Counted from the first letter of the stretch, positions 77 through 37,192 are shown. The stretch: 64,000 nt of DNA from Candidatus Gottesmanbacteria bacterium (GCA_023245335.1 JAHFKK010000001.1:795505-859504); one strand, 5' to 3'. Made by a program: numbers and translations. The notes: generated by a model not told the origin, from the sequence alone.

Positions 77-856
77 ATGACTACCGAACGCATACAGCCC
101 GTACAGGCGAAGGAGCTGGAACGTATCCAACTCAAAAGCTGGTTGTCTGCTCATGGTATAAAAGCGGTGCTATTTGACCTAGATGATACGCTCCTGGAGA
201 CTTCTGCGCAGGAGAGAAATATCGAGAATTCATACGTTTCGTATGTCGCCGAGCGCGTGCCCTCCGTAAACACGGAAGAGATGCTTGCTTCTATCCGTAA
301 ATTTGGCGCGGAAGCATTCGTTTCCCACTCGGTAAGTCAGGAGCGCTGGCATGCCGTCGTTGCGCATATGGCAGAGAAATACGGCCAGGCGATGACTCCG
401 GTTCTTTACGATGCGAAAAAGATCATATTCAACATATATAAGACGGCTCCTAATCTTCTGCCAAGCGCTATAGAGACTCTGGACGCGTTTCGAGCGTCTG
501 TGCCGAAAATGGGTGTGGTGACACATGCCGGTGTAGAGTGGACCAACGTGAAGCTCGATACGCACGACTTGCGGAAGTATTTTGACTCTGTGACGATTGC
601 GGATGCGTTTGGCAACAAAGGGCCGGAACATTGGCAAGAGGCGATGAAAGCACTCGATGTACGGCCGGAAGAAGTGCTGGTCATCGGGGATAACCTCAAA
701 GGCGATATCCTGGCCGCGCAGTCTTTGGGAGTCAAATACGCCGTACTCCTACCGAGCCCTTGGGCGGTGTATCGGGAAGGCACGGTAGCCCAGGGAACTC
801 TAAGGGCGGAACGCATCGCGGATGTCATCCGGACGATTCTTTCAGATAGGGCCTGA
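77..856 (+). CDS. HAD-superfamily hydrolase
   Basis: N-terminal DxD motif (VLFDLDDTLL) and C-terminal GDxxxD (VIGDNLKGD), typical of haloacid dehalogenase-like phosphatases. Confidence 0.65.
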   Translation: MTTERIQPVQAKELERIQLKSWLSAHGIKAVLFDLDDTLLETSAQERNIENSYVSYVAERVPSVNTEEMLASIRKFGAEAFVSHSVSQERWHAVVAHMAEKYGQAMTPVLYDAKKIIFNIYKTAPNLLPSAIETLDAFRASVPKMGVVTHAGVEWTNVKLDTHDLRKYFDSVTIADAFGNKGPEHWQEAMKALDVRPEEVLVIGDNLKGDILAAQSLGVKYAVLLPSPWAVYREGTVAQGTLRAERIADVIRTILSDRA

Positions 857-867
857 AAAAGAGGTGT

Positions 868-1095
868 ATGACGGGGAAGAAAGACAAATTATTAGATGAG
901 CCGGAATTTACCGTGACGATGCCATCACGGGAGGCTCGCATCCGCTTATTACTTGCGGAAAAATCTCAAAAAGTGAGATTTACGATCATATCAGGAGATC
1001 CGGAGGCTGATGCTTTCGTGATCGGTAGAACGTCCGCGAAGACCTGGCCGTCTCTGAGAAGTTTTGCGCGGAAGGTAGAAAAGGCTTTGAAGTAA
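868..1095 (+). CDS. hypothetical small protein
   Basis: 75-aa ORF immediately downstream of the HAD gene; no recognisable motif. Confidence 0.25.
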   Translation: MTGKKDKLLDEPEFTVTMPSREARIRLLLAEKSQKVRFTIISGDPEADAFVIGRTSAKTWPSLRSFARKVEKALK

Positions 1096-1115
1096 CGAAG
1101 AGAAAAATGGTTCCT

Positions 1116-1589
1116 TTACTTAGTTTTGCGATTGAGCACTACGCTTATAGTGAATACAGTAATCATGATAACCTGGCAGGTGATACAGACAGGACACACC
1201 ACTCGCAGCTGTATAAGCTCCCGATAGGCGATATAGAGACAAAATACTAAACCGAACGTCGCCATAGACAGCAGTAGCTTCCTGTTATGCACAAGTGACG
1301 CGTAGATCATGACCAGATACCCGATGAGGCCATAAAGCGGCGTCGGTATTCCCAGAGTTTTGGCGACCGGTCCCGAGATAATCGCATTGCAGTTGATGAA
1401 GCTATTTATGTTACACGGCTGGAATGCCGGGTGAAAGAATTGCTGCCAGAGAAGGTAAACCGCAAGAAGTACTCCGATGAAGGAGAGGTAAGCCGCAGCA
1501 AGAAATACTTTATTTACTTTTATATATATCATTATAAAGATTACGTCCGTTTGTTCAATTGTCAGTTTCGGGCGGTGTACGGGATGCAA
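1116..1589 (-). CDS. vitamin K epoxide reductase (VKOR) family membrane protein
   Basis: Multi-TM protein with a loop Cys pair (CNINSFINC), a GIPTPLYG segment and a TM CxxC (CPVC), the VKOR signature arrangement; the true start may be the internal Met (MIYIK). Confidence 0.6.
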   Translation of the reverse strand: MHPVHRPKLTIEQTDVIFIMIYIKVNKVFLAAAYLSFIGVLLAVYLLWQQFFHPAFQPCNINSFINCNAIISGPVAKTLGIPTPLYGLIGYLVMIYASLVHNRKLLLSMATFGLVFCLYIAYRELIQLRVVCPVCITCQVIMITVFTISVVLNRKTK

Positions 1590-1898: not shown

Positions 1899-2096
1899 AC
1901 GAAGATTCATGAGAGAGAGCGCATAAACGAAAAATTTGTGCATTTAGCCGAACTTTTCTTGTGAGTGCGTCATGCTACCCGATTTCCAACAATTACGTAT
2001 CAGTTGCGAGGCTGTTTTCAATCAAATCCAGGTTCGAAATCTGCAAATTTCTGGTCTTGAGATGAACTTAAGTTGACGTGATGCATATCAAGATAA

Positions 2097-2128: not shown

Positions 2129-2557
2129 GGCACGATGTTAGAAGTTGTCTTATATAACGCCCTAGGGCAAGAAATAGAAAACAAAGGTCCGACGAGTACG
2201 ATACGAAATGTGGCGATACGAGGGCCCGGGAAATCTGTGCGAACGGATCATTTCGTATTTTACCCCGAACAAGGACGGGTACACGCCAGCACAGTCACAA
2301 CACGGGGTAGATATTTTGATGTAAAGACCGAGAACCCGACAGATGAATCGCTTGTTCCAGCAGACGATACCGTGATAAATGCGGTCCTCCAAATAAATCA
2401 GACCTTGGAATGTAGAAGGCGTATACCGTCGGGAAAAATTCCTGATTGGGGTCGCGGTCAAATAGCAGGTTTCCGAGTAACGAGACGTCCACTGCAGGAA
2501 TCGTTTATAGAGTCATAAATTCCATTCCCCGAGGTTTTTTGCTACAATCCATCTGCC

Positions 2558-2631
2558 GCCCCGTTCGTCTAGCGGCCCAGGACATCTGGTTTTCAGCCAG
2601 AGAATCGTCGGTCCGAATCCGACACGGGGTA
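2558..2631 (+). tRNA. tRNA-Glu (anticodon TTC)
   Basis: Cloverleaf: acceptor GCCCCGT/ACGGGGT, D-arm CGTCTAGCGGCCCAGGACA nearly identical to E. coli tRNA-Glu, anticodon loop TTTTCAG, T-arm GTCGG-TCCGAAT-CCGAC; CCA not encoded. Confidence 0.85.
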
Positions 2632-2642
2632 CTCATGAAAAA

Positions 2643-2668
2643 GCCCGGCATTTGCCGGACTTTTTTTT
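2643..2668 (+). terminator. rho-independent terminator after tRNA-Glu
   Basis: GC hairpin gcccggca/tgccggac followed by an 8-T run. Confidence 0.65.
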
Positions 2669-3349
2669 ATGATAATCTCGAATGAGAACCGACCTATCGG
2701 TCCGCAATCCAGGAGTTAATGAGCCGAGTAACCGAGGCGAATCTTACTCCTGGTGAGTGTCGCGTGTCCGCGACAATCCGACACGGAGTACTATCTTTCG
2801 CTGAAGCTACGGCTAGCAAGCTCCAGCAATCTATCTCCGGAATCCCTTGCCTTCTCTGGGAGGTGACTGTTCCGCTCTTGCGGATTCTAAACGCGCGGAT
2901 AACGTATTTGCGAACGTATTGGTTAAGTCACCTAATAGATGCGATTCCATAAAAGTGGTTAGGCCTAAGAAATCATTTACTCCTATCTCGGTTCTTGCGG
3001 ATACCTTGAGGACGGTGCGGTTGACGGATAAGTTGCCTAACGGATTTGGAATGGTCTCAACAATCGATACTCTCCATCTCCCGTCGTTCATTAAGTCAGC
3101 TCGTAGCTGCCGACTGCGATCGATGCGTAAATTTGCTCCCATATTTGGTATGATGCTCATGAGAGCGGTATCATAGGATAAATATCGAATTTTGACAAGG
3201 AGTGATTATACGAGAGCACAATCTTACTTTCGGTTTATTTTCATATCATTTGCTCTAGTTAGATCCAGTTGACCACCATTACTTTCGGGTTTATTATGGA
3301 TTAACCCCCACTTCGTCCCGATGAAATTGTGGACTATGAGGGGCGCAGT

Positions 3350-3604
3350 ATGCCCGAAGTCATCAATGAACCGATTTCTGTCGCACTTTGGAGTAACCAT
3401 TCGTCCGGCAAAGTCATTCCCTACAGTCTCTACTGGCATGGCAGGCGGTATCAGATCAAAAACGTCGGCCTCCACCATATGTACCGTCAGGGACGAGTGC
3501 TTGTTCATGTCTTTTCGGTAACTGACGGGGTCACATTTTTTCGCCTGGAGATGAACTCGGAAACATTGGAATGGCGTTTACTGGACGTAGAAACGATCAA
3601 TTAA
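3350..3604 (+). CDS. hypothetical small protein co-transcribed with dinB
   Basis: ATG at 3350 preceded by a GAGGGG RBS; ends 9 nt before the dinB start. Could be a polymerase accessory factor (YolD-like is speculation). Confidence 0.35.
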   Translation: MPEVINEPISVALWSNHSSGKVIPYSLYWHGRRYQIKNVGLHHMYRQGRVLVHVFSVTDGVTFFRLEMNSETLEWRLLDVETIN

Positions 3605-3613
3605 CTAGAAGCC

Positions 3614-4882
3614 ATGGATTTTCACAACACTCCTCCTGTCGTCATGCACGTCGACCTCAATTCCTGTTTCGCGACCGTAGAACAGCAGGCCAATCCGTTG
3701 TTTCGCGGCAAACCGACCGTCGTTGCGGCCTATACGACCAATAACGGCTGTATCCTGGCTGCTTCCAAAGAAGCCAAACTCCTGGGGATCAAAACCGGTA
3801 TGCCTGTCGGTGAAGGAAAAAGAAGATACCAAAAGCTTATTGTCCTGCCGCCGGATCCGGGAAAATATCGTGTGGTCAATCATCAGCTTACGAAACTCTT
3901 AGGAAGTTACACAGATCTTCTTAGCGTGGAATCTATAGATGAGATGGTGCTGTCCCTTCTGGATACGCCCGCGTTATACCGGCAAATGCAGAAAGACGGC
4001 GACGTTTTATCAGCGATGGCCTCTATAGCCCACGAGATGAAAGCGCGTATACGAAACGAAATCGGCGAATGGCTCACCGTATCCATAGGGATTGCACCAA
4101 ACAGATACCTCGCAAAAGTCGCATCCAACCTCCAGAAACCGGACGGACTCCGATGGATTACCAAAGAAACGATCACGGAAGTATTTCAAGGCCTTGAGTT
4201 AGAGGATCTCTGCGGGATTAAAACCGCCAACGCGACCAGGTTGCGGTTTGCCGGAATTCCGTCGCCGAGCGCCATGCTGGAAGCCTCTGAGGAAGAATTG
4301 GCGCGGGCGTTTCATTCGATTCTTGGTTATCACTGGTGGCGGAGGCTTCACGGCTGGGAAGACGGCGGCATGTACAAATCGTTTGATGAGACAGAAGATC
4401 CGCAAAAAACATTTGGGCAATCCTACGCGCTGCCCAAAGGATATACGCCGACTGATCCCAGGCTGTGGCAAATCCTCGCACAGCTCGTGATGAAGATGGG
4501 TAAACGCCTGCGGGAGGCGGGCTGTACCGCACATGGCGTGGGGTTGTCGCTGCTTTTTACCGATTACAGTCACTGGCACACACAGGAAAAGCATATGGTT
4601 CCGCTCTTTGCGGACAGTGATTTTTACGAAAGGATGCGCGACATTCTAAAAGTTGCACCGGAGAGACCGGTCCGGATACTGGCGGTTTTTTGTTACCAGC
4701 TGGACCATGATATCTATACGCAGATGTCATTACTTCCGGAAGAGAACAAGAAGCGCGATATCACGATCGCGATAGATAAAGTGCAGGAACGGTTCGGAGA
4801 TTTCGTCATCACTCCCGGCCGTATGATGAATATGGAGCAGAGGGTGCTTGACCGCATCGCATTCGGAAAGGCAAGCATCTAG
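3614..4882 (+). CDS. dinB: DNA polymerase IV (Y-family translesion polymerase)
   Basis: N-terminal VVMHVDLNSCFATVEQ (catalytic Asp region of the UmuC/DinB family) and IAPNRYLAKVAS motif. Confidence 0.85.
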   Translation: MDFHNTPPVVMHVDLNSCFATVEQQANPLFRGKPTVVAAYTTNNGCILAASKEAKLLGIKTGMPVGEGKRRYQKLIVLPPDPGKYRVVNHQLTKLLGSYTDLLSVESIDEMVLSLLDTPALYRQMQKDGDVLSAMASIAHEMKARIRNEIGEWLTVSIGIAPNRYLAKVASNLQKPDGLRWITKETITEVFQGLELEDLCGIKTANATRLRFAGIPSPSAMLEASEEELARAFHSILGYHWWRRLHGWEDGGMYKSFDETEDPQKTFGQSYALPKGYTPTDPRLWQILAQLVMKMGKRLREAGCTAHGVGLSLLFTDYSHWHTQEKHMVPLFADSDFYERMRDILKVAPERPVRILAVFCYQLDHDIYTQMSLLPEENKKRDITIAIDKVQERFGDFVITPGRMMNMEQRVLDRIAFGKASI

Positions 4883-36634: not shown

Positions 36635-36658
36635 ACATTGTCAAAATCTTATTCCTTG

Positions 36659-36730
36659 CTGCGGGGCTTGGATTCGGACCAAGAATACCCTGCTCCAAAG
36701 GCAGGTGTCCTACCATTGAACGACCCCGCA
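36659..36730 (-). tRNA. tRNA-Gln (anticodon TTG)
   Basis: Reverse complement folds as acceptor TGCGGGG/CCCCGCA, anticodon stem CCTGC/GCAGG, loop CTTTGGA, T-arm CTTGG-TCCGAAT-CCAAG. Confidence 0.8.
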
Positions 36731-36863: not shown

Positions 36864-37139
36864 CTACTGAGAGTAATTATACCCTAGTTTAAAGAATATG
36901 TCATGAAGTTGGAGCGCTAATAACTTCCTTCCTGCACCACTTTTTAGAAACAATTCCCGCCTTCGTCCATCCGTCTCTAAAGAGTAAGATTCGTAATATA
37001 TAAGTTGTACCGGCAATCTATTTTTCGTGGATAGAACGTGTCCCGAAATATGTTTATGGAATCTTTTTTGAAGGTCAGGAGTAGAGCCGATATATAATTT
37101 ACCATCTTTTTTGCTATAAAGCACGTAAACGTAATACAT
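36864..37139 (-). CDS. GIY-YIG nuclease family protein (standalone)
   Basis: YYVYVLYSKKDGKLYIGSTPDLQKRFHKH GIY-YIG motif; about 90 aa. The ORF could extend to 37178; it sits within the tRNA cluster. Confidence 0.7.
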   Translation of the reverse strand: MYYVYVLYSKKDGKLYIGSTPDLQKRFHKHISGHVLSTKNRLPVQLIYYESYSLETDGRRRELFLKSGAGRKLLALQLHDIFFKLGYNYSQ

Positions 37140-37192
37140 GTATGATCGCAGGTGGTGGCGCGTTATACGCGCTGGCACCGCGTTTAACGCGG

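Follow-up and report, generated by a model that had tools for sequence, protein, structure and literature searches.

Downstream of the intact tRNA-Glu gene examined here, pieces of the 3' end of the same gene recur in direct orientation, which raises the question of how these displaced pieces arose. An earlier note had taken them for attachment-site-like repeats, left behind when a tyrosine-integrase element inserted into the gene and then decayed or was excised, or when several such events followed one another. We analysed the locus within the whole stretch of 64,000 nucleotides (hereafter the window) and compared it with related loci, which were fetched via the conserved neighbouring operon consisting of a DUF6504-like small gene, a Y-family polymerase gene and then MetK and MgsA. 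The window is identical to an ENA metagenome contig, and by its protein matches it belongs to the Patescibacteria, close to Gottesmanbacteria-like Microgenomates. The features of the locus are collected in Table 1.

Table 1. Features of the tRNA-Glu locus, with positions counted from the first nucleotide of the window.
Feature	Position	Strand	Sequence, basis or remark
tRNA-Glu(UUC) gene, intact, no encoded CCA; putative integration target	2558-2632	+	ARAGORN; Rfam tRNA 52.7 bits vs gathering score 29
Repeat copy 1, attL-like: tRNA A58 to discriminator plus CT	2616-2633	+	AATCCGACACGGGGTACT; exact pattern match; repeat-family search
Intrinsic terminator, A-run before and T-run after the stem	2638-2668	.	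terminator scan match 2645-2658 plus T-run; strongest helix in minus-strand fold
Two small predicted hairpins in the spacer	2676-2687 and 2688-2701	+	minimum-free-energy folds only; poorly kept in L008
Partial att-like copy: tRNA positions 50-62 plus one extra C	2697-2710	+	TCGGTCCG-C-AATCC; read from sequence
Hairpin 1: outer stem CCAGGAGT/ACTCCTGG, invariant internal loop UAAUGA / GAAUCUU, inner GCC/GGC stem	2709-2753	+	40/45 identical to L008, all differences in apical loop
Hairpin 2: TGTCGCG-tgtc-CGCGACA, abuts repeat copy 2	2758-2775	+	folds
Repeat copy 2, attR-like	2775-2792	+	AATCCGACACGGAGTACT; 17/18 match to copy 1
Probable 109-aa gene converging on the tRNA, outside the putative remnant	2831-3160	-	promoter-like site 3198-3170 on minus strand

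Copies of the tRNA-Glu 3' end in the window

Copy 1 is the end of the gene itself and spans the T-loop position A58 to two bases past the discriminator. The two copies are spaced by 159 nt in the repeat search, with 141 nt between them, and are the sole two matches to the tRNA-Glu 3' end at up to 3 mismatches in the 64-kb window, where 0.04 are expected; with the same pattern and threshold, two matches were obtained in 0 of 100 shuffles. Local alignment of the tRNA against the downstream copy yields a score of 31, compared to a shuffle maximum of 25. The repeats that the earlier note had described are thus real and beyond chance, with its coordinates off by a few bases. The longer alignment which it had given for the downstream copy, GTCCG..AATCC (2766-2792), requires a 4-nt gap for little gain. 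A third fragment, which had been placed at 2700-2714, is likewise real and lies at 2699-2710, as a part of tRNA positions 50-62.

Copy 2 is evidently free of tRNA constraint, since the G-to-A change by which it differs would break the acceptor pair C4-G69. No similarity to the tRNA 5' of position 50 was found by local alignment downstream of tRNA-Glu; hence copy 2 is not a decayed full-length tandem gene, and neither ARAGORN nor Rfam finds a second tRNA at the locus. The other 15 tRNA genes in the window have no non-tRNA partial copy at up to 1 mismatch per 16-mer.

The partial copy and copy 2 fit together. The sequence CAATCC is present at 2705-2710 and again at 2774-2779, and 2697-2704 joined to 2775-2792 gives tRNA positions 50-75 at 25 of 26 bases. 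The split falls between G57 and A58 and is made by ~70 nt forming two hairpins. In the related genome L008 the homologous fragment reads GCCGGTTCG-C-AATCC and agrees with L008's own tRNA at positions 50 and 55, the two positions at which the tRNAs of the window and of L008 differ in this stretch. Between the gene and the partial copy lies the intrinsic terminator, which could stop the tRNA transcript and, on the opposite strand, transcripts of the 109-aa gene, such bidirectional use being suggested by its A-run and T-run.

A 10-nt sequence, ACACGGGGTA, which is the exact acceptor 3' strand, occurs at 2299-2308 in an ORF upstream of the tRNA (2135-2518). With 8 of 300 shuffles scoring as high, this match is borderline and was treated as chance. 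As a separate observation, the T-loop of tRNA-Glu (2558-2632) and of tRNA-Gln (36658-36730) reads TCCGAAT; its position 55 is a C, although nearly all tRNAs have U (pseudouridine) there. The tRNA-Glu of L005 also has TCCGAAT, and those of L008, L013, L014 and L021 have the usual TTCGAAT; the C of position 55 recurs in the partial copy (2697-2704).

Displaced copies at tRNA-Glu in related genomes

Four further Patescibacteria genomes (L005, L008, L013 and L014) have tRNA-Glu followed by a terminator, 60-100 nt of hairpins and then a copy of their own tRNA 3' end, so that all five genomes with this tRNA-Glu locus type, the window included, have the repeat. In these relatives the copies begin at A58 or A59 and stop at C74, one or two bases past the discriminator, i.e. 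at the same boundary as in the window. Identity to the own tRNA is 16/16 in L013 and 17/17 in L014; the copy in L005 has one deletion and that in L008 a 2-nt insertion. Three alleles of the acceptor 3' strand occur (ACGGGG, CTGGGGG and GCAGGGGG), and every copy follows the tRNA of its own genome. Homology in the inter-repeat DNA is confined to the window and L008, and among most relatives this DNA cannot be aligned. In all five genomes the proximal unit is very small, ~110-190 nt.

The earlier note had held that the same arrangement in relatives, without any element, would speak against attachment sites. Formally, this is what the four genomes present. We do not take it as a refutation because most of the DNA between the repeats lacks homology from genome to genome and every repeat follows the tRNA allele of its own genome, a pattern to be expected from separate, fairly recent events. 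The comparison points to repeated independent events, rather than to one inherited non-mobile feature. For scale, the Y-family polymerase and MetK proteins of the window are 83.5% identical to those of L002, its sister lineage, and 71% identical to those of L008, with which the window forms the most distant ingroup pair.

In some genomes the displaced copies form arrays. L014/L024 has three of them on the tRNA strand, a perfect one at +137 nt, one with 2 substitutions at +1279 nt and one with 3 substitutions at +3438 nt, compared to 0.1 expected by chance. The outer copies bound segments of 1.1 kb and 2.2 kb with orphan genes, and the array looks like tandem accretion. The three displaced copies of L008 lie inside 330 nt; two are full-length, and the first is truncated after CCGAC and has lost its acceptor part. 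The window, with two copies and one partial copy, compares to three displaced copies in each of these genomes. The option of serial integration raised in the earlier note fits the array of L014, with its mismatches of 0, 2 and 3 from the inside outward. Just upstream of the displaced copies, a theme recurs across genomes, consisting of CTGGTG(AGTG), a short palindrome and AATCC, as element-derived arms would be expected to show.

Integrases and complete elements at the same gene

An island search at tRNA-Glu in relatives, which the earlier note had proposed, was productive. Downstream of tRNA-Glu, genes for tyrosine integrases (Pfam PF00589) begin after 135 nt in L002, 129 nt in L022 and 214 nt in L021, the latter two belonging to the outgroup. 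Homologs of the L002 integrase, P0127 and P0130, are found on one 1.07-Mb contig beside the same polymerase-MetK-MgsA block. In the outgroup, the host tRNA-Glu is split in its anticodon loop by a 14.6-kb element which has an integrase and a complete tRNA-Glu of its own. Next comes a second element of 7.9 kb with the integrase P0127, flanked by a 43-nt repeat of tRNA sequence, TTTTCAGCC...GGGGTAC, whose last 17 nt are identical to the tRNA end of the window. In another assembly (L021), tRNA-Glu is intact and P0127 lies downstream. Since integrase elements sit at tRNA-Glu in relatives, these sequence comparisons prove the gene to be an integration hot spot in this clade.

None of the integrase-bearing elements found has a T-loop-type repeat; those in the relatives cross over in the anticodon loop. 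Moreover, tblastn revealed no integrase pseudogene remnant at 2630-3330, a search which the earlier note had proposed; with two integrases as queries, it gave only weak matches elsewhere in the window, in unrelated genes. No relative of the L002 integrase was found in viral contigs.

Several side observations concern mobile DNA in this neighbourhood. In GCA_040960095.1, two tandem integrase elements lie at tRNA-Glu (L022 9706-10999 and L020 9745-17709); the first has an anticodon-loop core of ~10 bp, TTTTCAGCCA, and the second a degenerate tRNA-like sequence beside its integrase. In L002, a GIY-YIG gene (1090-1500, minus strand; Pfam E 4e-17) is located between fragments of the tRNA-Glu 5' end, GCCCCCTTCGT...CTAGCGGCC, and abuts a host-type tRNA-Glu cut off after about position 43, so that this tRNA seems to have received mobile insertions of two different kinds. 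The window itself has a 104-aa GIY-YIG nuclease-like ORF (36864-37178, minus strand), ~41% identical to that of L002, inside a tRNA cluster between tRNA-Phe and tRNA-Gly, with the short GC-rich hairpins GGCACCGCGTTAAACGCGGTGCC and GCCGCGTAAAACGCGGC on either side. In L005-L007 (~7366-7995 in L005), an IS200/IS605-type Y1 transposase gene is found between the Y-family polymerase and MetK, which is another sign of mobile-element traffic.

A conserved two-hairpin block next to copy 2

Between the window and L008, the 86-nt block 2697-2782 shows an identity of 87%, compared to 91% for the tRNA, 57% for the spacer before the block and 42% for the sequence after it. Hairpin 2 is GTCGTG/CACGAC in L008, a C-G pair being replaced by U-A in a compensatory manner, and a second L008 module has at this place a different but fully paired stem, GCCGAG/CTCGGC.

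A degenerate search of JGI metagenomes with the hairpin-1 core provided two further independent contexts. On a GC-rich contig (L009-L011), hairpin 1 lies ~320 nt downstream of a truncated tRNA-Ala, which directly follows a tyrosine integrase gene, and a Patescibacteria-like contig (L012) has two clear copies and a weak third. Across five copies in four contexts, 93.8% of the pair cells are standard and 6 of 13 pairs have changed on both sides; the covariation score was reached by 0 of 500 shuffles, and sliding the partners by 1-3 columns leaves only 36-46% pairing. As the alignment consists of few, partly related sequences, this covariation is supportive rather than conclusive.

We take the two-hairpin block for the conserved arm of an element family, which adjoins the att core and may act as DNA, folded single-stranded DNA or RNA. 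A search with the hairpin-1 model brought up no additional copy in the window and none across 208 kb of related loci; L005, L013 and L014 have no copy by this model. Rfam 15 gives only terminator-driven sub-threshold matches in 2400-3400 and nothing at the homologous sites in L008, L009 and L012. Viral-contig scans for the block were negative, and exact-pattern scans of species-representative genomes for a 22-mer of the block and for the tRNA 3' half were so as well. By blastn, 2633-2830 matches phages in the terminator only and has no match in plasmids. No larger element sharing the inter-repeat sequence of the window was found in relatives, viral contigs, JGI metagenomes, phages or plasmids. 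Twelve viral matches to the att core were rejected as attP sites, being complete tRNA-Glu genes in large phage tRNA arrays. An identification of hairpin 1 as a hammerhead core, K-turn, integron attC site, IS200/IS605 end or T-box was dropped upon by-eye comparison of consensus features.

Two details of the additional contexts may be recorded. In the 2.1-kb contig L012, the hairpin-1 sites are at 261-320 (-), 2022-2081 (-) and 105-163 (+); downstream of both clear copies come UACA, a long variable hairpin and UAAAGA. Together, the copies flank an orphan membrane-protein gene and infA, and the motif behaves like a dispersed repeat there. In L009, the truncated tRNA-Ala(UGC) (3707-3778, minus strand) comprises the 5' part through the anticodon arm plus 4 extra loop bases and directly follows the tyrosine integrase and an IS3-type transposase; its matching 3' half is absent from the 9-kb locus.

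Origin of the repeats

Taken together, the repeats are probably, though by no means certainly, the attL-like and attR-like junctions of an integrase-less remnant, which was left by site-specific integration at the tRNA-Glu hot spot. A same-orientation direct repeat of the tRNA 3' segment lies downstream of the intact gene, and it starts inside a symmetric stem-loop and reaches the gene 3' end, both of which are marks of a tRNA-targeted integrative element. A third mark, a tyrosine recombinase gene between the repeats, is absent from the 141-nt segment, and no Pfam integrase is found among the neighbouring ORFs. Both repeat copies are kept without genes between them, which is one of the marks of a cis-mobilizable element (CIME). 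The composition at the locus shows no anomaly. Four observations agree with site-specific integration, later decay to remnants bounded by att sites, and tandem accretion: a sharp boundary in the T-loop that recurs, copies that each match the tRNA of their own genome, inter-repeat DNA mostly without homology, and arrays that decay outward. The attachment-site reading of the earlier note is partly supported, by repeat boundary, recurrence, arrays and integrases in relatives, and lacks an integrase remnant and an integrase tied to a T-loop-type repeat.

Under this explanation, an integrative element would have recombined with the tRNA-Glu segment from the T-loop to the 3' end. It would have brought its own copy of the tRNA 3' end together with a terminator, and that copy would now complete the gene (copy 1), the original 3' end having been displaced downstream to become copy 2. 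Subsequent deletion of the integrase and any cargo would have left a remnant of 141 nt between two att sites, similar to a miniature CIME. Either two events, nested or in tandem, or a site resembling the core within the arm of the element may account for the partial copy at 2697-2710, and the two hairpins by copy 2 may be the conserved end (arm) of an element family. Such a remnant would not be self-mobile, while both copies could still be recognised by a related integrase as substrates. Three of these steps are inferred, namely the making of this particular T-loop-type repeat by a tyrosine recombinase, the small size as an outcome of deletion, and the nature of the hairpins as an att arm.

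Some features do not fit a plain scar. The uniform proximal unit of ~110-190 nt in five genomes speaks against a remnant, as independent deletions would not obviously converge on that size, and the 87% block identity between the most distant ingroup genomes speaks against plain debris. The small uniform units, the tight match to the tRNA alleles and the conserved hairpin block remain unexplained by a plain scar, and they keep alive two of the alternatives discussed below, a functional RNA and a tiny mobile insert. They could also, in a speculative and rather unlikely extension, mean that the 110-190-nt units are miniature elements or modules of one family, which lack an integrase and whose agreement with the tRNA allele is actively maintained. 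Hairpin 1 would then be an as yet undescribed structured module belonging to integrative elements that target tRNA genes, either a folded single-stranded recombination arm or a small RNA selected after loss of the element.

Comparison with known systems

The kind of feature is already known, i.e. an integration-site scar at a tRNA gene, of which the window adds a new example. The T-loop is, as Williams is said to have described (2002, Nucleic Acids Res), a sublocation where some integrase subfamilies cross over. Like islands and prophages placed in tRNA genes by tyrosine recombinases at this sublocation, the locus has a same-orientation 3'-end repeat from the T-loop to the gene end and an intact tRNA, and integrases occupy the same tRNA in relatives. 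Unlike them, the window has 141 nt with no integrase or cargo, and the integrase elements of the relatives use the anticodon loop.

Integration and subsequent decay to integrase-less, att-bounded units is known, together with tandem accretion, from the CIMEs of ICESt1-type elements in Streptococcus (PMC5704250). Tandem arrays of such units are seen here in L014 and L008; the known CIMEs, however, are kilobases long and come from identified ICEs or IMEs (PMC5704250), compared to a unit of ~0.14 kb in the window. In the ssrA island arrays of Dehalococcoides, several ~20-bp direct repeats of the 3' end of the tRNA-like gene lie downstream of it, a conserved element-derived motif stands just upstream of each repeat, and some islands are without an integration module (PMC3146451). 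The motif shared across genomes upstream of the displaced copies resembles this arrangement, whereas the Dehalococcoides islands differ in having a serine recombinase, tmRNA as target and many genes (PMC3146451) instead of tRNA-Glu and mostly tiny units. As in actinobacteriophage tRNA-dependent lysogeny (PMC10865867), the L022 and L002 elements split the host tRNA-Glu at a ~10-bp anticodon-loop core and carry their own complete tRNA-Glu by the integrase. In the window the tRNA is intact and there is no element-borne tRNA, so that this system provides context for the hot spot only.

Several consequences follow if the repeats are read as integration junctions. They would mark tRNA-Glu as an integration hot spot in a small-genome Patescibacteria lineage and indicate that in streamlined genomes integrated elements can shrink to little beyond two attachment sites. 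The repeat rule (tRNA-Glu A58 to C74) and the hairpin-1 model could serve as handles for finding islands and remnants in poorly annotated genomes. Should the conserved hairpin prove functional, it would be a new structured module tied to integrative elements.

Alternative explanations

The region after the terminator could, instead, be a functional structured RNA linked to tRNA-Glu, in which the T-arm/acceptor copy is part of the fold or mimics the tRNA end and is matched to it by selection. The block is about as conserved as the tRNA and its flanks are far less so, compensatory changes occur in both hairpins, and the purine-rich internal loop (tandem G-A by the GCC/GGC stem) is structurally sensible on the tRNA-sense strand only. 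The post-terminator segments of L013 and L014 also fold as closed multi-hairpin structures (z-scores -3.7 and -3.6), and the occurrence of the repeat in every genome with this locus type would be natural for an RNA. In addition, there is a tendency for an upstream segment to pair with the displaced copy in its acceptor part (Fisher combination ~1e-4), on which we do not build, as the pairing is significant in only 3 of 8 cases. However, a strong terminator separates the tRNA from the block and no sense-strand promoter is predicted there. The inter-repeat sequences are unalignable among most relatives, the hairpin-1 model finds nothing in three of them, the first copy of L008 is missing its acceptor part and no Rfam family matches. 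Furthermore, the kilobase, gene-bearing, repeat-bounded segments of L014 are left unexplained. Overall, we regard a functional RNA as unlikely.

Somewhat less likely still is that the 64-nt block 2711-2774 is a tiny site-specific mobile insertion, which entered the T-loop of an earlier displaced tRNA copy (positions 50-74) and duplicated CAATCC, independently in the lineages of the window and L008. Such an event would account for the exact split of the 25/26 match between G57 and A58 with CAATCC on both sides, for the agreement of both flanking pieces with each genome's own tRNA and for a block common only to the two most distant ingroup genomes. The additional copies of hairpin 1 in L012 and in the unrelated GC-rich contig would fit a mobile unit as well. 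Yet the block has no terminal inverted repeats, is present in a single copy in the 64-kb window and is absent from 208 kb of related sequence, and the L009 and L012 copies are without flanking T-loop sequence. There is no known transposition mechanism for a 64-nt unit of this kind, and AATCC is native to the T-loop, so that the apparent duplication may just be the att core.

A long target-site duplication by a transposase-type element, e.g. a casposon-like one, instead of an integrase, appears very improbable. A host-derived copy would automatically match the tRNA allele of each genome, and casposons, according to what Krupovic and Beguin reportedly found, target tRNA 3' ends and make 14-15-bp duplications, to which the repeat length of 16-18 nt is close. 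Against this, there are no terminal inverted repeats at the ends of 2634-2774 and no Cas1 or polymerase genes nearby, the relatives have tyrosine integrases at tRNA-Glu, and the repeat begins inside the symmetric T-arm as expected of recombinase cores. Finally, we give almost no credence to a chance match, which the 0.04 expectation and the shuffles exclude, or to a decayed tandem tRNA-Glu duplicate, which is compatible with the commonness of tandem tRNA genes and with the 159-nt spacing but effectively refuted by the boundary pattern, as decay would be even, while the match is 17/18 from A58 and nil before position 50, with the sharp boundary recurring in four other genomes.

Neighbouring gene, operon and synteny

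The stretch 2.8-3.3 kb adjacent to the repeats, which the earlier note had considered low-coding, turned out otherwise. A word-indexed search with the 109-aa ORF found only itself, whereas exhaustive phmmer yielded two full-length, same-size distant homologs (E 6.6e-8 and 1.4e-4); the ORF is thus likely to be a genuine small gene. On its way to the terminator, the transcript of this gene would cross the repeat and the hairpins in antisense orientation. Pfam and PHROGs gave nothing for this ORF, for its plus-strand alternative, for the upstream small ORFs or for the orphan genes of the L014 islands. The stretch 3224-3302 is conserved in all relatives at 76-87% identity and corresponds to the promoter region of the downstream polymerase operon.

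Most relatives have tRNA-Glu no more than ~2 kb from the polymerase, on the strand opposite to it; the window alone, compared with L002-L024, has the gene on the same strand as the polymerase operon. None of the upstream genes of the window (HAD hydrolase, VKOR, small ORFs) is found close to the polymerase in relatives, and synteny breaks at the locus. The missing upstream counterparts and the inverted tRNA indicate that the locus was rearranged and imply that an inversion or a translocation took place, for which the tRNA-Glu array was a breakpoint. Integration at tRNA-Glu would account for both the local synteny break and the inverted orientation of the tRNA.

Within the conserved promoter region, a promoter-like site at 3269-3297 stands upstream of the operon of the DUF6504-like gene and the Y-family polymerase. 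Around it, the direct repeat TTACTTTCGG(T/G)TT is found at 3224-3236 and 3279-3291, and the stretch is possibly an operator for a damage-response regulator.
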